A stretch of 35,286 nucleotides of DNA from a virus (lineage: Duplodnaviria; Heunggongvirae; Uroviricota; Caudoviricetes): positions 1-35,286 of the IMG/VR virus record IMGVR_UViG_2606217105_000003; one strand, given 5' to 3'. The position numbers and the translations under genes were made by a program. A model generated the notes under the pieces. That model worked only from the letters and a program-made list of their open reading frames with translations, ran no database searches and was not told the origin of the DNA. Below, in pieces: positions 2,692-33,664 of this stretch (the first letter of the stretch is position 1; each line of letters starts with the position of its first letter).

Positions 2692-4773
2692 ATGTTTGTT
2701 CTCGCCAAAGAGCTGGTCGGTGTACCAGGATTACCAAAAACAATTAAAGGAATTCGGGAAGCATTGCGCCGTTATTGCGGCGAATCAGAAGGAATGATGC
2801 GTAAGCGTGCAGGGACAAAGGCTTTTGAGTTCCATGTCGACTGTTTGCCTGATGTGGCGCGTAAGGCGTTACAGGCTCGCCAGATTAAGGCGTTAATGAA
2901 TCAGCCAGCAACTGAGGCAAAAGAACCTGAATCTCCGCGTTTAAAAAAACGTGAAGACGGCAAAATTGCGGTTTACCGCAAATGTCCTGCGCTGTTTGAG
3001 CAGAAACTCGGAACGTTAACCGCTACGCAAAAAGAAACAGCGGATGCCCGGATTGCGATTGTCAGCGAAGTTTTGCGCGTTTGTGAACTACCAGGAATCA
3101 GCCAGGCCGCCGCTATCCGTGAGTTTGTGAAACAGGCTCAAAACGGTGAGTTACCGGCACACCTGGTGGAAACCGTTGCAACTGCGAACGCGAAAAAAGG
3201 TTCTTTGCGCTCCCTTAGTGAAATATCACTGAAACGCTGGATTGCTGATTTTAAAAAAGCAACCACTCCGGCTGAACGTCTGATCATGCTGGCACCAGGC
3301 AAACGTCAGCCCATAAAACCAGACCAGATTCGCTGGTTACCAGAGTTTCTTCGCTTTTACCGCCGTCCGAACGGGTGCGGAATACGAGAGGCTTATGATG
3401 ATTTTGCTGCGGAATGGTATGAAGTGCATCAGGACAATCCTGCGATGTGTGCAGCACTGCCGTCGTATGATCAGGTTTGCTATGCCATGAACAAACTCCC
3501 GGTTGTTGTGAAACAACGTGGGCGCGTTACAGGCAGCGAGTTCCGGCAGTATGAAGGCTTCGTGCGTCGGGACTGGTTATCTTTACCGGTAAATTATGCC
3601 TGGATTGGTGATGGTCACGGCATGAAGATGAAAGTGGCACATCCTGATCACGGCAATCCATTTTCCCCAGAAGTCACCTTTATCATGGACGGCAGTTGCC
3701 GCTTTATTGTGGGCTGGAGTCTGGCACTTTCTGAAAGTGTGGTTGCTGTTGCTGATGCGTTACGCCACGGAATAAAAAATCACGGCAAACCGTATATCTA
3801 TTATTCAGATAATGGCGGCGGTGAAACCAATAACACGTTCGATGCTGATATTACGGGTGTCTTACCGCGTCTTGGAATTGATCACCGTCTTGGTATACCG
3901 GAAAACCCGCAAGGGCGAGGGATTATAGAGCGTCTGAACCGTACTCTGGCTATGCGCATATCACGCCAGTTTGCCACGTATTATGGCACCGGTGCCGACC
4001 GTGGAACGGTTCGCCGGACGACAAAGGCTCTGATATCTGCAACAAATGCGGCAAACAAAGGACGGGAGCTGACTGAAAAACAACGGCAGGCTTTAAAAAA
4101 CCTGCCGTCATGGAATGAACTTATTGCTGCTATTGAAGCTGGTGTGGAATGGTACAACAACCGTCCGCATAGTTCGCTACCACTACGTGGAAACGGTGAA
4201 CATTACACCCCGGCGCAGTTCCGACGCTACAAACTGGAAAAAGAAGCGACGGAAATCGAATGGTTGTCCGACCTTGAACTGCGTGAAATGTTTATGCCCC
4301 AGATTGAACGTACAGTCAACCGCTGTGAAGTCAGGCTGTTTAATAATATTTATTATTCAACTGACCTGGAATATGAGCACGGTAATAAGGTGCTGGTGAA
4401 TTACGATATTCATGATGCAACAAAAGTAATTATCCGCCGCATGGACGGTTCCTATATCTGTGAGGCTGTCTGGGATGGCAATAAACAGCAGGCATTCCCG
4501 GTCACTGCGGAATACCATCAGCGCCAGCAGCGTATCAAAGGGATGCGTCAGCGCGGAGAGGAAAAAATCAGACTGGCCGAGGCAGAGAATACCCGAACAC
4601 TGCCAGCTCCTGTTACAGGCAACGGGTTGTTCAGCAACGTCTACAGACCAGTGGAGAAAGTCGTGCCAGTGCTGGCAGATGAACCGGACGATGAATATGA
4701 AAGCGACCGCGACGAATATCTGAATAATTCACTGGATATTCTGGAACAGAACAGACGTAAAAAAGCCATTTAA
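2692..4773 (+). CDS. A: Mu-type DDE transposase A
   Basis: 693 aa; N-terminal LPGLPKT motif as in the MuA enhancer-binding domain; C-terminus DDEYESDRDEYLNNSLDILEQNRRKKAI nearly identical to the MuA C-terminus as recalled. Confidence 0.9.
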   Translation: MFVLAKELVGVPGLPKTIKGIREALRRYCGESEGMMRKRAGTKAFEFHVDCLPDVARKALQARQIKALMNQPATEAKEPESPRLKKREDGKIAVYRKCPALFEQKLGTLTATQKETADARIAIVSEVLRVCELPGISQAAAIREFVKQAQNGELPAHLVETVATANAKKGSLRSLSEISLKRWIADFKKATTPAERLIMLAPGKRQPIKPDQIRWLPEFLRFYRRPNGCGIREAYDDFAAEWYEVHQDNPAMCAALPSYDQVCYAMNKLPVVVKQRGRVTGSEFRQYEGFVRRDWLSLPVNYAWIGDGHGMKMKVAHPDHGNPFSPEVTFIMDGSCRFIVGWSLALSESVVAVADALRHGIKNHGKPYIYYSDNGGGETNNTFDADITGVLPRLGIDHRLGIPENPQGRGIIERLNRTLAMRISRQFATYYGTGADRGTVRRTTKALISATNAANKGRELTEKQRQALKNLPSWNELIAAIEAGVEWYNNRPHSSLPLRGNGEHYTPAQFRRYKLEKEATEIEWLSDLELREMFMPQIERTVNRCEVRLFNNIYYSTDLEYEHGNKVLVNYDIHDATKVIIRRMDGSYICEAVWDGNKQQAFPVTAEYHQRQQRIKGMRQRGEEKIRLAEAENTRTLPAPVTGNGLFSNVYRPVEKVVPVLADEPDDEYESDRDEYLNNSLDILEQNRRKKAI

Positions 4774-4810: not shown

Positions 4811-5749
4811 ATGAATATTTCCGATATTCGTGCAGGACTGCGCACGCTTGTAGAAAATGAAAAAACAACTTATGCACAAATCGCCCGCGAGTCTGGGGTG
4901 GCCGCAGGAACGTTAAGCGCATTCGTGAATGACAAGTACAACGGCGACAATGAACGTGTCGCGCAGTCTCTTGAACGCTGGCTGGAGAACTATCACCGCG
5001 CCGCAGAACTGCCAGAACCCCCGCGTTTTGTGGAAACCAGAACGGTCCGCCAAATCTGGACAAGTATGCGTTTTGCCAGCCTGACTGAAAGTATTTCTGT
5101 TATCTGTGGTAATCCAGGAGTGGGAAAAACTGAAGCGGCCCGCGAATTTCGTCGCACCAATAACAATGTCTGGATGATCACCATTACCCCATCCTGTGCC
5201 AGTGTTCTGGAATGCCTGACTGAACTGGCTTATGAACTGGGAATGAATGACGCACCGCGCCGTAAGGGGCCACTCTCCCGCGCTTTGAGACGCCGTCTTG
5301 AAGGTACGCAGGGGCTGGTCATTATCGACGAAGCTGATCATCTTGGCGCTGAGGTTCTGGAAGAACTCCGCCTGTTACAGGAGTCCGCCCGTATTGGTCT
5401 TGTTCTGATGGGGAATCACCGCGTTTATTCAAACATGACCGGTGGTAACAGAACGGTTGAATTTGCCCGCCTGTTTTCCCGTATTGCCAAACGGACGGCA
5501 ATCAATAAAACCAAAATTGACGATGTAAAAGCCATTGCGGATGCCTGGCAAATTACCGGCGAAAACGAGCGGGAATTATTACAACAGATTGCACAAAAAC
5601 CAGGTGCGCTTCGTATCCTGAATCACTCGCTGCGCCTTGCGGCCATGACAGCCTACGGTAAAGGCGATCGTGTTAATGAAAATTATCTGCGTCAGGCTTT
5701 CCGTGAATTAGACCTGGACGTTGATATTTCAACCCTGCTGCGCACGTAA
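4811..5749 (+). CDS. B: Transposition target DNA activator B (AAA+ ATPase)
   Basis: 312 aa; [17 protein letters not shown]... with Walker A GNPGVGKT and Walker [10 protein letters not shown]; near-identical to Mu B as recalled; directly downstream of A. Confidence 0.9.
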
Positions 5750-7780: not shown

Positions 7781-7955
7781 GTCAATTGGCTTTGTCCTGC
7801 TGGTTGGCACCTGCGGGAATGATGCCTGCGATGCCATCCCGGTAACGGAAAAAATCTGGCCCACAGAGCAGGCCTGTATGCAGGTGATGGAGCGCATACA
7901 AAAACGTTATCCCAGTGAAATCTTTTATTGCGAAGAGGTATTACGAAATGAATAA
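7773..7955 (+). CDS. Small Cys-rich hypothetical protein
   Basis: 60 aa from ATG overlapping the upstream stop (ATGGTTAA); hydrophobic N-terminus VLLVGTCGNDAC; seven cysteines in 60 aa. Confidence 0.35.
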   Translation: MVKSIGFVLLVGTCGNDACDAIPVTEKIWPTEQACMQVMERIQKRYPSEIFYCEEVLRNE

Positions 7956-8337
7956 CGCAGAGAAAAATGAAATTAAATCCACATCCGCCAGCACCAGAAA
8001 ACATCTTTATGATTTTTATGTTGCCTATAACCAGTGGTTAAAAAATGGTGCACCAGAAACAGAGGGTGAAATATTTGTTCAATATTCAGGATTATGTGCA
8101 AATGCTTGTCGTTATTTTGACGAAATCGGAGTGGATACCGAAGATATATTAGAACAATTACGTGCAGATTTTATCGCGAACGAGTTGGATGAATTATTAC
8201 CTTTCAATGAAAGTAGAGCGCACTATCATGAGGAATGCAGACTTGGCAGATGTCACCTGAATTCTGCTCGTGTGGCATGGGTCGAAAAACACTGCATTAA
8301 GGAGATGGGACATAATGAGCCGCACATCCCTGATTAA
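7948..8337 (+). CDS. Hypothetical protein, AT-rich (moron-like)
   Basis: 129 aa from ATG after GAGGT; visibly AT-rich relative to neighbours; no recognised family. Confidence 0.4.
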   Translation: MNNAEKNEIKSTSASTRKHLYDFYVAYNQWLKNGAPETEGEIFVQYSGLCANACRYFDEIGVDTEDILEQLRADFIANELDELLPFNESRAHYHEECRLGRCHLNSARVAWVEKHCIKEMGHNEPHIPD

Positions 8338-8866
8338 ATTAATTCATGTTGCCCGTCGGGAGTTGCAACTCGACGATGACACTTACCGAGCTTTTCTGGT
8401 GCAGTGCACGGGCAAAACCAGTTGCCGCGAGCTGTCCGTTGCACAACTGGAACAAGTGCTCGATGCCATGAAAAAGCGCGGTTTTAAGAAGCAGAAAAAA
8501 CATCCCCGCCGTCGCTTTAAGGGGCATGTCACACCACGCGAGAAGATTTACAAAATCTGGCAGCAGATGTTCCTTGATGGTTTCGTTTCCGATATCAGCG
8601 ACGCCGCGCTGGACAAATACGTTGAGCGCCTGACGGCCAGACGTAATGGCGGTCAGGGGGTTTCCACACTGGCCTGGTGTCACGGGGAATCGTTGCAGGT
8701 TGTGCTCGAAACGCTCAAACAGTGGCATATGCGCTGCATCCGTGAAGCCTTTGCCCGACATGGTGTGCCTTTACCTGTGAGCGAAACCGGTCGGGAGCTG
8801 CGCGGCTATGATGCACTGACCAGTGCGTATGCCCGCGCACGAAACAGCGGGAGAATTGCTGTATGA
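8315..8866 (+). CDS. gemA: GemA-like regulatory protein (Mu gene 16 family)
   Basis: 183 aa from ATG after GGAGATGGGACATA; sits immediately before mor as gemA does in Mu. Confidence 0.65.
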   Translation: MSRTSLIKLIHVARRELQLDDDTYRAFLVQCTGKTSCRELSVAQLEQVLDAMKKRGFKKQKKHPRRRFKGHVTPREKIYKIWQQMFLDGFVSDISDAALDKYVERLTARRNGGQGVSTLAWCHGESLQVVLETLKQWHMRCIREAFARHGVPLPVSETGRELRGYDALTSAYARARNSGRIAV

Positions 8867-9273
8867 AACAGATGAAAGAGCAGGATTTATTCGAAGACTT
8901 CCGGGACGACACCGTTCTGGAATATCTTCACGATTATCAGGAAAAATATGTTTATCCGGCGCTACTTTCAGAGCTGAATGCTCTGTTGCGACAGGAACTG
9001 ATAAGGCTTGGGGTTAACCCGGTCTATTCCCTTGAGTTGGTAGTGGCGATTTGTAATCATATCGGTGGGATTCAGGTATATGTTCCTAAAGGGAAAATAC
9101 TGGAAAATCTTATCAGAGACATGCGCATCTGGCGTGATTTTGATGGGAAAAACGTAGCGGAACTGGTGCAGCGTTACAAAGTGACATACAAAACGGTATA
9201 TCAAGCTATCAAAAGAATGCGAAGGCTGGAGCGTGGAAAATATCAAATGCAACTGTTTAAGGATGAGTCATGA
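8863..9273 (+). CDS. mor: Mor/C-family transcriptional activator
   Basis: 136 aa; acidic N-terminus, conserved-looking core LELVVAICNHIGGIQVYVPKG and C-terminal HTH-like YKTVYQAIKRMRR; position after gemA. Confidence 0.6.
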   Translation: MKQMKEQDLFEDFRDDTVLEYLHDYQEKYVYPALLSELNALLRQELIRLGVNPVYSLELVVAICNHIGGIQVYVPKGKILENLIRDMRIWRDFDGKNVAELVQRYKVTYKTVYQAIKRMRRLERGKYQMQLFKDES

Positions 9274-9749
9274 AATACTTTCCTCTTATACTTTTACTGA
9301 GCGTATTTTGCGCTAATGCGGCAAAGTTGCCAGCTGAAGATGTCATCAAAAAACGTCTGACAGAAAAAGATTTCATTGCACTAAATAGCTGGATGCCTCT
9401 TAAGGGAGGCGATTCTATTAAGAACGGTGGAACTGAAACTGCTCACAGCAAATTCGGGGTATTTACGATCAATAATAAAGTCGTCAGCTCAAGGACGACT
9501 GTAAAGGATTTTGAAAACAATCCTTCAGGTGTGTTGTCTTCCTTTGTAGCATGCTCGCGGGTTGCAGAGTCAGCAATTGGTGAACTAACAGAGAAGCAGC
9601 AGAAACGAATTATTGACATGGTAGTTTCAGCTACAAAAGTTGAAGGGTATGGGTTAACTGACGTGATACAGGGTTTTCTCATGCAAACCAAATTTCTCAA
9701 GATGGGTAACGATATGGTAATAGATTGCTCCATCAAAGGAGATGAGTAG
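9270..9749 (+). CDS. Predicted secreted/periplasmic protein of unknown function (moron)
   Basis: 159 aa; N-terminal signal peptide MKYFPLILLLSVFCANA; AT-rich; followed by its own intrinsic terminator. Confidence 0.55.
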   Translation: MKYFPLILLLSVFCANAAKLPAEDVIKKRLTEKDFIALNSWMPLKGGDSIKNGGTETAHSKFGVFTINNKVVSSRTTVKDFENNPSGVLSSFVACSRVAESAIGELTEKQQKRIIDMVVSATKVEGYGLTDVIQGFLMQTKFLKMGNDMVIDCSIKGDE

Positions 9750-9770
9750 TTATCTTCCCTTAATTCAATG

Positions 9771-9795
9771 AAGCCGGTAAATCCGGCTTTTTTTG
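9771..9795 (+). terminator. Rho-independent terminator (stem AAGCCGG/CCGGCTT followed by a T-run)
   Basis: AAGCCGGTAAATCCGGCTTTTTTT directly after the secreted-protein gene. Confidence 0.7.
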
Positions 9796-9849
9796 TGCCT
9801 CCGGCACTATGAAGCAGACCACGTTTAACTCTGCTTCACAGGTGCTTTT

Positions 9850-10437
9850 ATGGAAAATCAAAAATTCTCTCCGGCCTTTGAACATGCGCTGAATTTTATT
9901 CTGCGTCCTGATATCGAAGGCGTCTATGTCAATGACCCCACAGACCGTGGCGGCGAAACCAAATACGGCATTTCTGACCGCCGCGACGGTGTGATTGACG
10001 GCAAAACCGATGTCAACGGCGATGGTAAACCCGACACCCGCATTAAGGATTTAACCCGCGAACAGGTTGCGCAGATTTACTGGCGCGATTACTGGCTGCC
10101 TGCCGGATGTGACCAGTGGCCTGATGGCGTGGCGATGTTTGTGTTCGATGCGGCGGTTCAGCATGGCGTTAAAAAAGCTATCAAAATTTTGCAGGAAGCC
10201 ACTGATGTGGATGCTGACGGCATCATCGGCCCGCGTACCCGTAAGGCCGTGAGCCTGTCCACCCCGGACTGGTTGCTGACCCGCTGCATTGTCCGTCGTT
10301 CCCGCTTTTATGCCGAAATCATCAAATCCAAACCCGCCCAGGGCAAATACCTGAATGGCTGGTTTAACCGCATGGAAAAACTGACCGACGCCTGTCTGGA
10401 AATCATCGACAACGCGCCGTCCACCACGCGGGGGTGA
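9850..10437 (+). CDS. Endolysin, GH108-type muramidase with C-terminal peptidoglycan-binding domain
   Basis: 195 aa; N-terminal FEHALNFILRPDIEGVYVNDPTDRGGETKYGIS is typical of the GH108 family; C-terminal DADGIIGPRTRKAV is PG-binding-like. Confidence 0.75.
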   Translation: MENQKFSPAFEHALNFILRPDIEGVYVNDPTDRGGETKYGISDRRDGVIDGKTDVNGDGKPDTRIKDLTREQVAQIYWRDYWLPAGCDQWPDGVAMFVFDAAVQHGVKKAIKILQEATDVDADGIIGPRTRKAVSLSTPDWLLTRCIVRRSRFYAEIIKSKPAQGKYLNGWFNRMEKLTDACLEIIDNAPSTTRG

Positions 10438-10438
10438 C

Positions 10439-10690
10439 ATGGGCAAAGGCTGGGACGCCTCCCTGAAAGCCGGGCGGCGTGACCGCCTGCGTCAGGAGGT
10501 TTTACACCGCATGGCCGGAGGCCCGCCTCCGAAACCGCTGGACTATACCGGCCATGACGGCACACACGCCAGCTACTACATGCGTGGCTGGAACTCCGTG
10601 GATACACGGGACATTTTCTGGCAGTGCCAGAAGTACAGGGAAAAATTCAATGTGGAAAAAGGTAATGAACAAAATTTTAAAACTGTGTGA
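10439..10690 (+). CDS. Hypothetical protein in the lysis region
   Basis: 83 aa; ATG coupled to the endolysin stop (GTGACATGG). Confidence 0.4.
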   Translation: MGKGWDASLKAGRRDRLRQEVLHRMAGGPPPKPLDYTGHDGTHASYYMRGWNSVDTRDIFWQCQKYREKFNVEKGNEQNFKTV

Positions 10691-11075
10691 CTGGCTGCTT
10701 TGTTCCCGACTGATGAGAACCCCATGGCCGCTGGCCGGACTGACACTCTGCATGTTCATCATCAGCATGTTATGTGGCTGGCGATCGTTCGTGTTGATGT
10801 TGTTGTCCTTTGCCGGGGTGGTGTTGTTTTCATACAGCGCAAGCCTCGGGAATGTGCCATTTCGCCTGCTGCCTGAGGTCCGTTACCGGGCTTTTGGTCG
10901 CCACATCATCGTGTGGTCATGGGTGGTCTGGGCGCTGGGATATTTCTGCTGCGTCTTCAGCACGCTGATGATGATGTCACCGGTGCATCCGGTGTTCTGG
11001 CTGTGTGGTGGTTGTTGCGGCGGTCTGCTCTGTCTTCAGCGTTATCTGTATGGAGGTTTCCCGTGGATCCGTTAA
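10650..11075 (+). CDS. Predicted membrane protein, Cys-rich, several TM helices
   Basis: 141 aa from internal ATG (track ORF 10479..11075 likely over-extended); overlaps the previous ORF in another frame. Confidence 0.4.
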   Translation: MWKKVMNKILKLCDWLLCSRLMRTPWPLAGLTLCMFIISMLCGWRSFVLMLLSFAGVVLFSYSASLGNVPFRLLPEVRYRAFGRHIIVWSWVVWALGYFCCVFSTLMMMSPVHPVFWLCGGCCGGLLCLQRYLYGGFPWIR

Positions 11076-11671
11076 CCCTTTCAGGCATCGCCTCTGTTCT
11101 GCTGAAAGCCGGGCCGGGGCTGATTCGTTCCGTCGGGCGCTGGTTTGGTGGCAGCACATCTGCCGCTGCTGACTCGGTGGCCGGTATGGTGGAAAGCGTC
11201 CGGGAAAGCCTGCCGGTGGCTGAACAGCAACGCATTCTGGAACAAAAACTGGTGATGCTGTCACCGGAGCAACTGATGCAGCTGGAAACCCTGAAAGTTC
11301 AGCTGCAACAGCTGGAGGTGGAACGGCAGAAGCTGGTGCTGGCTGACCAGCAGGCCGCACACCACGAACAGCAGGAAACCATCCGCAATGGTGACAACGC
11401 CACGGACAGCTATGTGCGCCAGACACGCCCGCTGCTGGCCCGCCTTTCCTGTTACAGCAGTCTGGCCTATGTGCTGTTGCTCTCCTGCGGCCAGATTGCC
11501 GGAGCCATTGCCGGTGCCAGAGGTATCACGCTGCATATGCCATCACCGGACTGGGATATCACGCTGATGTTGCTTACCCCGGCGCTGGGCTATCTCGGTG
11601 TAAGAACCCTTGACGGCTTTGCCCGTTACAGCAAATCAAGCCGTCACAAAATGTCTGCGGGGCTGAAATGA
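11063..11671 (+). CDS. Putative holin-like membrane protein (3TM holin type)
   Basis: About 202 aa if started at GTG 11063 (GGAGG 6 nt upstream); central coiled-coil and C-terminal hydrophobic segments. Start uncertain; ATG at about 11191 is an alternative. Confidence 0.4.
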   Translation: MDPLTLSGIASVLLKAGPGLIRSVGRWFGGSTSAAADSVAGMVESVRESLPVAEQQRILEQKLVMLSPEQLMQLETLKVQLQQLEVERQKLVLADQQAAHHEQQETIRNGDNATDSYVRQTRPLLARLSCYSSLAYVLLLSCGQIAGAIAGARGITLHMPSPDWDITLMLLTPALGYLGVRTLDGFARYSKSSRHKMSAGLK

Positions 11672-11895
11672 CCGACGAAATCGATCGCATCAGTGAAGTG
11701 GTTCTGAACGAGCGTCAGAGCGTCGTTAAAGCCTGGCAAACACGGACAAAAGAAACGCCCCACAGCCGGGGCTTCTGCAATGACTGCGGGAACGTTATTC
11801 CGGCACAGCGCCTTGCGGCGCTGCCGGATGTGGTGACCTGTATTGACTGTCAGCAGATGCGGGAACGCAGGAGGAAAACGTGTCCTGGGAAATGA
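11668..11895 (+). CDS. TraR/DksA-family C4 zinc-finger protein
   Basis: 75 aa; CNDCGNVIP...CIDCQ four-cysteine motif. Confidence 0.7.
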   Translation: MTDEIDRISEVVLNERQSVVKAWQTRTKETPHSRGFCNDCGNVIPAQRLAALPDVVTCIDCQQMRERRRKTCPGK

Positions 11896-12185
11896 TCAGA
11901 GCCAACTGGCCCATTCTGTGGGCATTGCTGATGACAGGAATAAACCTGCTTCAGCTGATTCTGGCGAAAACCTACGTCAAACGTGAAGAGTTTGATTCAC
12001 TCCGTTCCCGCGTGTCGGTGATGGAAAGCCAGGTACACCATTTACCCGACCGTGATGAGTTCCACCGCCTGCAACTGGATATCAGCAATCTGCGGGGAGA
12101 AATCAAAGAACTGGGGCCATCCATCCGCCAGGTATCCCGCATCAGCGATTTGTTATTAGAGAACGAGTTAAAGGAAAAAAATTAA
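11880..12185 (+). CDS. Membrane-anchored coiled-coil protein (possible lysis accessory)
   Basis: 101 aa; GTG start with GGAGGA RBS; N-terminal TM helix WPILWALLMTGINLLQLILA followed by coiled-coil. Confidence 0.45.
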   Translation: MSWEMIRANWPILWALLMTGINLLQLILAKTYVKREEFDSLRSRVSVMESQVHHLPDRDEFHRLQLDISNLRGEIKELGPSIRQVSRISDLLLENELKEKN

Positions 12186-12478
12186 TGGCGATGAAAGAGA
12201 TCCTCACTGAAGACCGTCGTCTTGTGTTGCTGCGTTCCCTGCTGGACTGTGGCGACAGCGCGAATGAATCCGTGTTGCAGACCTGCCTTCAGGCTTACGG
12301 TCATAAGGTATCCCGTGATGTGGTGCGCACTCAGCTTGCATGGCTTCGCGAGCAGGGGCTGGTTCGTCTGTCTGATGTGGGCGGCTGTTACGTGGCTGAA
12401 ATCACCGGCAGCGGCGAGGATGTGGCAAACGGCCTGTCCAGCGTTCCGGGCGTTAAAAAACCCCGTGCGAGGGACTGA
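12185..12478 (+). CDS. Hypothetical protein
   Basis: 97 aa; ATG overlaps the upstream stop. Confidence 0.45.
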   Translation: MAMKEILTEDRRLVLLRSLLDCGDSANESVLQTCLQAYGHKVSRDVVRTQLAWLREQGLVRLSDVGGCYVAEITGSGEDVANGLSSVPGVKKPRARD

Positions 12479-12480
12479 GC

Positions 12481-12768
12481 ATGGCCCGAAAACTGAAGCC
12501 GTTAAGTCGCGGAGAACGGGCCGTCGTGCGGCAACTGGCGTACTGCCTTGTGCTGGCAGATATTGAGCAAAACGCCATTGTCCGTGCATACGAAAAACAG
12601 ACAGGAAAGCCCTGGAACCCGGATGCACCGGATACCCCCATGAAACGCGCCCTGCGATCATCACCGGCATGTGCGCGGCTGTGGAAGCTGTTAAGTAAGG
12701 ATATTCAGTCCGTTCGTGAAGAAATATACGCCGGTCTGAAAACGCAGAGGTCTGAAGATGGAAAATGA
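12481..12768 (+). CDS. Hypothetical protein
   Basis: 95 aa; tightly packed before the terminase small subunit. Confidence 0.45.
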   Translation: MARKLKPLSRGERAVVRQLAYCLVLADIEQNAIVRAYEKQTGKPWNPDAPDTPMKRALRSSPACARLWKLLSKDIQSVREEIYAGLKTQRSEDGK

Positions 12769-31311: not shown

Positions 31312-31860
31312 ATGATGCACTTAAAAAATCTTACGGCACAAAACCCTAAAACAATTGAGCAATACCAGCTGGCGCGACAGCATAAATTTTTATTGTGGCT
31401 GTTCTCCGATGATGGTCAGGAATGGCACGAAGCCCAGGAAAAATTTCAGCCAGACACTCTGAAAGTTATTTATGTTGAAACTGGCGAAGTGGTCTGGGTT
31501 GGAAAATACATCACCTCAATCTGCCCGGAAAATAAAAGCGTGATTGAGCTACCGGATATTACCGCCAATCGTCGCATTGATGCGTCGGGTTACTGGTTCT
31601 ACCGCAATGATGAATTTGTTTTTGACTACAAACTTAAAGCGGAAGATGAGCGTGATGCACTGTTAAAACAGGTCAGCATCGTGACCAGTGAATGGGAAAA
31701 AGACCTGCTGCTTGGATTAATCAGCGACGAAGAGAGGGAGAAGCTGAAATCGTACCGCATTTACGCGAAATCGCTGCGGGCAATGGATTTCAGCGCCATC
31801 ACAGATAAAGCCACATATAACGCCATCAACTGGCCGGAGCATCCTGATGCCGCAGCTTAA
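31312..31860 (+). CDS. Tail fibre assembly chaperone (Tfa, Mu U-like)
   Basis: 182 aa; immediately after the fibre gene. Confidence 0.7.
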   Translation: MMHLKNLTAQNPKTIEQYQLARQHKFLLWLFSDDGQEWHEAQEKFQPDTLKVIYVETGEVVWVGKYITSICPENKSVIELPDITANRRIDASGYWFYRNDEFVFDYKLKAEDERDALLKQVSIVTSEWEKDLLLGLISDEEREKLKSYRIYAKSLRAMDFSAITDKATYNAINWPEHPDAAA

Positions 31861-33664
31861 AGGTATAATTACATCCCCTGTGGGAGAACCGCTGAGCGGA
31901 GCAACAATAACCCTGACCTCACTACACAATCAACCCGGGATCCTGAGAGGTGTTTACAGTCACGTAACCACTCTGAGCGGTGAATATGATTTCCCCGTGC
32001 TGCCCGGAGTATATAGTGTTCGTCTGACACACAGTTCACAGCGCCTTGCAGAAATCGGGGTCATTCGGGTCTATATGGATTCGCGCGATGGTTCACTTAA
32101 TGATTTTCTGGGAGCAACTGAAATTGACTTACGACCAGAATCTTTGCGCAGATTCGAAGAACTGGCAGACAAGGTGCAGGAAAATGCAGATACGGCGGCA
32201 TCATCATCCCAACAAGCAGTAAAGATTCTGGAAGCTATTCAAAACATAGCCGGGAATATATCCGGTCTGCGTTACGAAAATTTTACTGACATACTCAGCC
32301 GTTGCACGACAGCCATGCTGAAACTGGAACAACCCGAGGTTGTTGATACATCAATATCTTTAAAAATAAAAGAAAATATCGATTTTAATTATGTCGGTGA
32401 AGTTAACGGATATTGCGATATTTCTGAACCAGAAAAGTATAAAGTCGAAATGTATGCTTATACAACCGGAGAGTATTTTAACGGCGACGCTAATTTGAAT
32501 AGTGACGGAACTTTCTATTTCAGACGTTGCTGGACGGGAGCAAAACAGTTTCGTCTTATTCGGATTGAGGATAATGCGTGGATCACAACGCTGGAGTTTC
32601 CACTGCTCATTCGTAGCTACTGGATGCCGGAGGACGCAGACCCCGAAGTGATCAGGGTGATGAAAGATCGGTGTTACACGTATGACCAGGCGCTGGCAGC
32701 ACTGGCGTTGATGGTTCAGCGACATGAGGCTGTAGAAAGATACGTTGCGGGCTTGTGTGCGCTTGTTGATGAAAACGGTGGAGTAAAGTTTTTTGTTAAC
32801 AGGCTGTCGGCCATGTCACCGCGTACCTATTACCGCCTGGGGAATGCGGCATGGGTTTATTATGCTTTGGCCTTTTATCTGGAGAAATATCCGGACGGAG
32901 CGCAGGTAAATATTGTTCGGGAAAAGTTGTTATCCGGCATTGTCTGGCTTGATTCTTTCCTTGTGACAACAGAAGGTGACCTGAGAGAAGGTTTATATAA
33001 AGGCGGCCTTGGTCGTTATGTAAATGGCGAATTTGACGCCAGTTTTGTTGCTGAATGGTGCGCACTGGAGCACAACGTAGATATCTGGTTTTTGTTTGAA
33101 CTGATGGGGCGGCTGGGATTTGATGGTTTCACCAAACGTGCAGAAAAACTGGCGCAAAGCATCATCAGGGGGATGTGGGTGGAAGAAGAGGGACGATTCC
33201 GTCAGGGGGTGCATCCAACACACTATGACAACGCGGCAGCACTGGATCAATCTTCCTGGGGAGGATTGTTTATAGCCAATATAGATACCGGGAAAGCAGC
33301 AAGATGTCGTAAGTACATGGGGCGTTTTTTATTTGGCACGCGGGAAACAACAGGTTATACACCGTATCACCCTGACTACGGTTACAGTGGTCACAGTCGC
33401 GGCGTGTGGGTGGAAGGAACTGCGGGCGTGGCACTGTTTGAGCGCAAACTGGGTAACGAGCTGAATGCAGTGAATCTCATTGCTGCAATGGCCCCGCTTT
33501 TTAATAAGTTTGGTTACAGAGATTCATGTGATGATCCAACCTATGATGTGCTACCTCCGTGGCCATCAACAACAAACACAGCCTGGATAATCCTGACGCT
33601 AAAACCAGAAAATTTCTGGTTAGTGGATTCACCTGAAATGGATGTTGGTATGATTCGGTACTGA
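31847..33664 (+). CDS. Chimeric tail-fibre-like protein: lambda Stf-type N-terminal anchor fused to a globular enzyme-like C-terminal domain
   Basis: 605 aa; start overlaps the Tfa stop. N-terminal ~130 aa matches the lambda side-tail-fibre N-terminus as recalled (motifs YSV, LNDFL, RPExLRRxE). C-terminal ~400 aa is Trp/Tyr-rich without fibre repeats. An AT-rich linker lies at about 32300-32520. Confidence 0.55.
   Translation: MPQLKGIITSPVGEPLSGATITLTSLHNQPGILRGVYSHVTTLSGEYDFPVLPGVYSVRLTHSSQRLAEIGVIRVYMDSRDGSLNDFLGATEIDLRPESLRRFEELADKVQENADTAASSSQQAVKILEAIQNIAGNISGLRYENFTDILSRCTTAMLKLEQPEVVDTSISLKIKENIDFNYVGEVNGYCDISEPEKYKVEMYAYTTGEYFNGDANLNSDGTFYFRRCWTGAKQFRLIRIEDNAWITTLEFPLLIRSYWMPEDADPEVIRVMKDRCYTYDQALAALALMVQRHEAVERYVAGLCALVDENGGVKFFVNRLSAMSPRTYYRLGNAAWVYYALAFYLEKYPDGAQVNIVREKLLSGIVWLDSFLVTTEGDLREGLYKGGLGRYVNGEFDASFVAEWCALEHNVDIWFLFELMGRLGFDGFTKRAEKLAQSIIRGMWVEEEGRFRQGVHPTHYDNAAALDQSSWGGLFIANIDTGKAARCRKYMGRFLFGTRETTGYTPYHPDYGYSGHSRGVWVEGTAGVALFERKLGNELNAVNLIAAMAPLFNKFGYRDSCDDPTYDVLPPWPSTTNTAWIILTLKPENFWLVDSPEMDVGMIRY

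Follow-up and report, generated by a model that had tools for sequence, protein, structure and literature searches.

The window, by which we mean the whole 35,286-nt stretch of DNA analysed, is a complete Mu-like prophage. Genes for a repressor, ner, transposase A, B, gam, gemA and mor are followed by lysis, head and tail genes. Our subject is a 159-aa ORF between mor and the endolysin gene. The features of the region are as follows:

2692–4773: transposase A
8270–8866: gemA
8863–9273, + strand: mor, the upstream cistron, encoding a Mor/C-family activator (Pfam Mor PF08765, E = 3.9e-29)
9259–9267, + strand: Shine-Dalgarno-like AAGGATGAG in the last mor codons, 2 nt 5ʹ of the ATG of the ORF (read from the sequence)
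9270–9749, + strand: the ORF, ATG start, 159 aa
9270–9320, + strand: predicted signal peptide, aa 1–17, MKYFPLILLLSVFCANA (hydropathy and the −3/−1 rule)
9321–9749, + strand: mature domain, 142 aa, ~15.5 kDa, pI ~8, plus stop codon
9552–9554, + strand: C95 codon
9726–9728, + strand: C153 codon
9770–9796, + strand: backbone hairpin GAAGCCGGTAAATCCGGC with a T run, the intrinsic terminator of the early operon (terminator scan, fold energy, conservation)
9803–9846, + strand: another conserved hairpin, within the endolysin gene leader and outside the ORF (fold energy, complementary arms)
9850–10437, + strand: endolysin gene, GH108 plus PG_binding_3, the first gene past the terminator/promoter region (Pfam PF05838, 1e-23; PF09374, 8.6e-17)

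The ORF encodes an exported protein with a predicted cleavable Sec-type signal peptide and a signal peptidase I site after A-N-A. Its N-terminus consists of K2, the uncharged hydrophobic run YFPLILLLSVFCANAA and the cleavage motif A-N-A↓A, with cleavage preceding AKLP. A heuristic test for type I signals, which looks for a basic n-region, an h-region of 10–15 hydrophobic residues, small residues at −3 and −1 and no lipobox, was positive for the ORF, finding K2, then YFPLILLLSVFC, then A-N-A↓A. The ORF product has neither a lipobox nor a further hydrophobic segment, its maximum KD19 past residue 30 being 1.07. An earlier, sequence-only reading of this DNA had described a 159-aa protein with a clear signal peptide. 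This description is borne out, since the three-part signal is found by hydropathy and the −3/−1 rule, and its n-h-c layout is kept in 21/21 members of the family described below despite sequence variation. The mature part of each member contains exactly two cysteines, 57–59 residues apart in family A; P21, W41, C95 and C153 are invariant in the family. The two invariant cysteines probably form one periplasmic disulfide.

The ATG of the ORF overlaps the mor stop codon, TGA (9271–9273), as a 4-nt ATGA, and this mor/ORF junction is common to prophages carrying either of two alleles, A and B, described below. As read from the sequence, the overlap and the Shine-Dalgarno-like element inside mor fit translational coupling of the ORF to mor. 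A scan of positions 8000–12500 yielded 0 sigma-70-like promoters at threshold, and a looser scan gave only 8/12 matches. Because of the ATGA overlap, the lack of a convincing promoter, and a downstream terminator that belongs to the phage backbone (see below), we place the ORF at the end of the early operon, as its final cistron. It thus shares a transcript with the lytic activator mor, which makes strong expression in a stable lysogen unlikely. From the gene arrangement, we infer that the product is made early after induction or infection, and not from the repressed prophage. These observations bear on an alternative view of the ORF as an autonomous moron or lysogenic-conversion gene, that is, an independent cassette expressed from the prophage that alters the surface of the lysogen or excludes other phages. 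Both the overlap of its ATG with the mor stop and the lack of a promoter at the scan threshold speak against such independence. Moreover, a transcript containing mor would trigger the lytic programme, so that a conversion gene would need a transcription start inside mor, where there are only the weak 8/12 matches.

The hairpin at 9770–9796 has an 8-bp GC-rich stem followed by a run of seven Ts, and folds with −13.3 kcal/mol (z = −3.7 versus shuffles). In two prophages that lack any gene in this position (L006 and L007), TCAATGAAGCCGGTAAATCCGGCTTTTTTT lies immediately 3ʹ of the mor stop. From TCAATGAAGCCGGTAAATCCGGCTTTTTTT to the endolysin start, the sequence is nearly invariant across prophages with allele A, allele B or neither. 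An identical hairpin follows a ~20%-identical family member in L008, and the hairpin is also found in L015, L019, L020, L023 and Klebsiella phage Kp4866-3. The counterpart in phage Mu is AAAGCCGGTTAATCCGGCTTTTTTT, 8 bp past mor (L025, AF083977, 977–1001), which differs from the window hairpin at two positions, one in the stem and one in the loop. The presence of the hairpin without the ORF in L006, L007 and Mu, and its constancy beside diverged cargo, identify it as a backbone element. It is the early-operon terminator of the phage backbone, and the ORF is inserted between mor and this element. The sequence-only reading had credited the ORF with a strong terminator of its own; the terminator is canonical, but it is the property of the backbone, which again counts against an independent cassette. 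The general lesson for annotation is that a hairpin behind an AT-rich cargo gene need not be that gene's own.

The same hairpin may have a second role. The GenBank record of Mu places a predicted terminator (9179–9200) inside the Mor-activated middle promoter, Pm (9163–9233). The dyad to which Mor binds spans −51 to −36, with its centre at −43.5 (PMC4287176), and in Mu Pm its position coincides with the hairpin. By homology with Mu, the hairpin of the window prophage is probably also a Mor operator. The second hairpin, at 9803–9846, folds with −19.4 kcal/mol (z = −3.6), and its GGCAC pairs with the endolysin Shine-Dalgarno sequence, AGGTGC, in the 3ʹ arm. Its inner arms vary yet stay complementary: they are GAAGCAGA/TCTGCTTC in the window, and GAAACGG/CCGTTTC in L008 and L019. 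If transcription started 43.5 bp from the centre of the dyad, as it does in Mu, the start site would sit in the loop of the second hairpin, and the endolysin ribosome-binding site would then be occluded only on read-through early transcripts. A distant Mu-like clade, with Mor proteins ~27–32% identical, has another conserved terminator, AACCC(C)GCC...GGCGGG(G)TTTTTGTTTGA, in place of the Mu-type hairpin (L009, 6494–6530, and equivalent positions of L016 and L022), with a conserved CCACAAACCCAC motif downstream. These sequences suggest that the distant clade uses a different activator operator.

The GC content of the ORF is 40.6% (GC3 39%), compared with 53.5% for the window and 54–59% for the lysis and late genes. 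The AT-rich coding sequence remarked on by the sequence-only reading is therefore real, and is a point in favour of a moron. However, other early genes are equally AT-rich, with 42.6% GC for mor and 38.5% for an ORF at 7915–8337. The ORF at 7915–8337, with 140 aa and no Pfam family, has the look of a further accessory slot in the early region. It is itself variable among related prophages, being missing from, or only partially matched in, LR882057, STEC388 and FDAARGOS_943.

Related prophages were found in 50 of 5,426 complete E. coli genomes. The position after mor is occupied by the ORF (allele A) in 24 cases and by a distinct secreted 165-aa ORF (allele B) in nine; in 14 it is empty, meaning that mor is followed directly by the terminator and the endolysin gene. 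Allele B and the ORF have the signal peptide and the mor junction in common, but their mature parts show no demonstrable homology, and BLASTP aligns residues 1–32 only. In hhalign comparisons of the ORF family with allele B, the probability is 86% with the signal peptide and 6% (E = 0.006) without it. Nevertheless, the conserved Trp and the first Cys line up even in the weak alignment obtained without the signal peptide, and allele B has two mature cysteines at positions similar to those of the ORF family. Relatives of allele B likewise occur between mor and the endolysin gene (L023). Since the slot can be empty or carry other envelope-targeted cargo, the ORF is dispensable. The 3ʹ end of the early operon, before the terminator/Pm, is a hot spot for dispensable envelope-targeted cargo. 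The description of the ORF as an accessory gene between mor and the endolysin gene thus stands: the cargo slot differs between otherwise near-identical prophages.

Klebsiella phage Kp4866-3 (L026, 2881–3213) carries in this slot a gene for a 110-aa multi-TM protein that begins with GTG, overlapping the mor stop, and is followed by the same hairpin and by a GH108 endolysin gene. In the empty-slot prophages L006 and L007 (both 1564–2013), Mor has 149 aa and ends in a Pro/Arg-rich tail, YPSPNLPHPVRRPPRRP, that is present in neither the window Mor nor Mu Mor, the latter two being 59% identical to each other. The tail might record the loss of cargo, or it might be an alternative ancestral terminus.

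Close relatives of the ORF form six clusters at ≥73% identity among 5.8 billion proteins. Searching 1.84 billion representatives exhaustively with a profile added ~10 distant full-length relatives of 19–33% identity, 150–169 aa long, all with a signal peptide. A search for related loci with the close-relative alignment found nothing in genome contigs, and only near-identical viral contigs. In 8/8 informative distant loci (L008, L009, L010, L015, L016/17, L019, L020/21 and L022), the family member lies between mor and the endolysin gene of a Mu-like prophage. In 7/8 it is directly after mor and co-oriented with it, at a spacing of roughly −11 to +15 nt. The neighbouring endolysin is GH108 or Peptidase_M15_4, depending on the locus. 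The shared position of relatives that are only 19–33% identical means that the ORF is not a recent one-off acquisition.

The protein evolves rapidly under constraint. The dN/dS of the ORF versus its relatives is 0.06–0.15, and the protein is therefore under purifying selection; within allele A, dN/dS is well below 1, and diversifying selection was not seen. At the same time, no other gene of the region diverges nearly as fast as the ORF, as judged from sequence comparison: Mor, endolysin and gp27 of L019 are 63%, 66% and 79% identical to those of the window, compared with 25% for the ORF. The dS to L002 is 0.75 for the ORF and 0.14–0.29 for flanking genes, which suggests that old alleles have been shuffled between phages by recombination. 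A chance ORF or decaying pseudogene might be expected to lack a known domain and to be narrowly distributed, as this ORF is. Nonetheless, purifying selection, full-length conservation over 19–96% identity with invariant Cys, Trp and Pro residues, a confident fold prediction (see below) and a conserved genome position leave this explanation with a negligible probability.

One locus breaks the rule of position after mor. In L010 (4628–5104), the family member runs opposite to every phage operon and converges on a bidirectional terminator (5106–5132). Its start is 55 bp from the endolysin start codon, which forces the endolysin promoter of L010 to overlap with it, and a possible promoter lies upstream of the inverted gene. 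Hence, coupling to mor is the rule but is not universal. With its own terminator and a possible promoter, the inverted gene of L010 is the kind of arrangement expected of a moron. Presence, absence and replacement of the gene among near-identical prophages, and an allele far older than its flanks, are also features of morons. Set against these is the retention of a co-oriented gene abutting mor in 7/8 distant loci. Taken with the evidence on transcription and the terminator, this leads us to regard an autonomous moron or lysogenic-conversion gene as unlikely. The sequence-only reading had proposed a moron with its own terminator; this does not agree with the ATGA overlap, the lack of a promoter at threshold and the backbone terminator. 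It had offered lysogenic conversion or superinfection exclusion as the function. An accessory role at the envelope remains plausible for an exported protein from a variable slot, whereas conversion is weakened by co-transcription with mor, which makes strong expression in the lysogen unlikely.

The likeness to phage morons of the HK97/lambda type (lambda bor and lom, HK97 gp15) is nonetheless considerable. In both cases, cargo lies between genes that are adjacent in relatives, has a GC content below that of the late genes, is present, absent or replaced among close relatives, and encodes an envelope-targeted product. The ORF differs in having no promoter or terminator of its own, in its apparent translational coupling to mor in an early lytic operon, and in a position that is conserved across deep divergence rather than sporadic.

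An AlphaFold2 model built on a 16-sequence alignment has a pLDDT of 86.6 and a pTM of 0.80, and supersedes an earlier AlphaFold run on a shallow 7-sequence alignment (pLDDT 52). The pLDDT is low (57–65) over residues 1–20. In the model, a disordered signal peptide is followed by a helix (23–34), three strands, a helical hairpin (87–103, 108–121) and three more strands, so that the mature domain is predicted to fold as a compact PAS/PDC-like alpha/beta module. The best structural matches are extracytoplasmic PAS/PDC (Cache-like) sensor domains, those of SrrB, CzcS, PctD and TlpA, none of them at E ≤ 1e-3; Foldseek searches of BFVD and PDB gave no match at that threshold. The N-terminal helix, the six-stranded sheet packed on a helical hairpin and the extracytoplasmic location are shared with these sensor domains. 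Unlike them, the ORF product is a stand-alone secreted domain, without a transmembrane or signalling partner.

Database searches place the ORF in a family that is uncharacterised. Its only match in PHROGs is phrog_38744, which is full-length (E = 1e-109) but carries no annotation and thus gives no functional information; no known exclusion or defence family was matched there. Searches of Pfam, NCBIfam and PADLOC with the ORF, allele B and 16 relatives returned nothing meaningful (PADLOC, 0 families). A profile search of PDB sequences gave no match to the ORF, and neither megablast nor tblastn of the region or the ORF found a match in 50,697 phage records. Periplasmic lysozyme inhibitors (Ivy, MliC/PliC, PliG) were rejected as candidates: they are absent among the structural matches, and the ORF and its 16 relatives have no Pfam match to them. 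We found no description of the gene family in the literature. Small secreted accessory proteins of prophages are already a familiar kind; the fixed position at the mor/Pm junction is the new detail.

What might such a protein do? On balance, and with guarded confidence, we favour the explanation that the last cistron of the early operon encodes an exported accessory protein with an early role of the envelope-protection or exclusion type. The ORF would be read as the terminal early-operon cistron after induction or infection, and its product would be exported to the periplasm and oxidised there. It would then bind a periplasmic or outer-membrane component or ligand, and the lytically committed cell would be shielded from secondary phage attack or envelope damage. 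A dispensable, fast-diversifying periplasmic binding protein that is probably made early has the pattern typical of proteins at phage-phage or phage-host interfaces, and for this reason we chose envelope protection or exclusion as the single most likely function. The assignment of an early superinfection-exclusion-type or envelope-protection function, as opposed to lysogenic conversion, virion assembly or lysis, follows the logic of T4 Sp and Imm, and as a specific function we put it forward only tentatively. Close analogues are Sp and Imm of T4 and Llp of T5, which are also small, non-essential, fast-evolving early products located in the envelope. We detected no sequence or structural similarity to them, however; T4 Sp is all-helical, which the ORF product is not, and Llp is a lipoprotein, which the ORF product again is not.

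A more specific version of exclusion is masking of the phage's own receptor in the style of T5 Llp or phi80 Cor, which would block reinfection and the loss of progeny on debris. Although a periplasmic location, probable early expression and fast evolution would all suit such a protein, the ORF product is not a lipoprotein, and the tail fibres do not follow the slot. The window tail fibre (31847–33664) finds a full-length match, at 95% identity, only in STEC388, which has an empty slot, and the A'-allele prophage TD225 has a different fibre C-terminus. In this small sample, the ORF is therefore unlinked to receptor specificity, and we consider self-receptor masking very unlikely. The tail-fibre region as a whole (31312–33664) is mosaic: other relatives share only the N-terminal 106–138 residues of the 605-aa fibre, at 67–80% identity, and a 182-aa ORF upstream of the fibre gene is 31–34% identical in most relatives and 75% identical in FDAARGOS_943.

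The position of the family next to lysis genes raises another alternative, that of a lysis accessory: a periplasmic modulator of the endolysin or of peptidoglycan, or, in a phage that has no recognisable spanins, an aid to breaching the outer membrane. A family member always adjoins an endolysin gene (GH108 or Peptidase_M15_4), and in and around the lysis cassette of the window (9850–12185) no ORF for an o-spanin-like lipoprotein turned up. Yet the ORF is in the early operon, with the early terminator between it and the lysis genes, and its product has no TMD or lipobox. Empty-slot prophages retain a lysis cassette that is otherwise 83–98% identical. In phage Mu, genes 19 and 20, which lie between mor and lys, are non-essential membrane-protein genes with no significant effect on lysis (PMC9239132). 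We therefore consider a lysis accessory quite unlikely. An inhibitor specific to the endolysin was considered separately; this candidate is weakened by the occurrence of the family beside both GH108 and M15 endolysins and of the same endolysin in empty-slot phages.

Spanins were rejected on similar grounds. An i-spanin has an N-terminal signal-anchor TMD, an o-spanin a lipobox Cys, and a u-spanin a lipobox and a C-terminal TMD, and all are expected in a late lysis cassette. The ORF product has a predicted cleavable signal without lipobox or TMD, its gene is upstream of the early terminator, and empty-slot phages keep their lysis cassette. The earlier view that the protein is not a virion or lysis component accords with these results: the signal peptide is present, and the protein is not a spanin.

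Mu genes 19 and 20 resemble the ORF in encoding non-essential envelope-targeted proteins in the interval from mor to the endolysin gene of a Mu-type genome. They differ in lying downstream of Pm, in the middle operon, and in encoding integral membrane proteins; the ORF is upstream of the terminator/Pm element and has a soluble secreted product. No homology between them was detected.

We also entertain a broader and more speculative possibility, which we think rather improbable, that family A, and perhaps allele B, represent a new class of early periplasmic effectors of Mu-like phages: stand-alone, fast-diversifying PAS/PDC-like binding modules, long kept at the mor/Pm junction, that either keep competing phages out at the envelope through a novel mechanism or imitate extracytoplasmic sensor domains of the host as decoys, rewiring envelope signalling during lytic growth. 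Should it turn out to exclude other phages or to serve as a signalling decoy, the protein would represent a new class among the envelope functions encoded by prophages. More generally, a positionally fixed family of secreted proteins in enterobacterial Mu-like prophages is an accessible candidate for new phage-phage or phage-host interactions at the envelope. The natural isogenic variants with allele A, allele B or an empty slot allow a direct test of function.

The lysis cassette of the window encodes the GH108 endolysin, a gp18-like ORF, a multi-TM protein, a GTA_holin_3TM-like protein, a TraR zinc-finger protein and a DUF2730 "releasin"-family protein. The endolysin gene directly follows the Pm-like region, and the homologue of Mu gp18 (MGKGW..., 10439–10690) is next. 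The window has one Mor/C-family gene, mor, and lacks a homologue of C, the late activator of Mu. With a single Mor/C gene and the endolysin gene placed before the gp18 homologue, the middle/late regulatory layout therefore differs from that of Mu.
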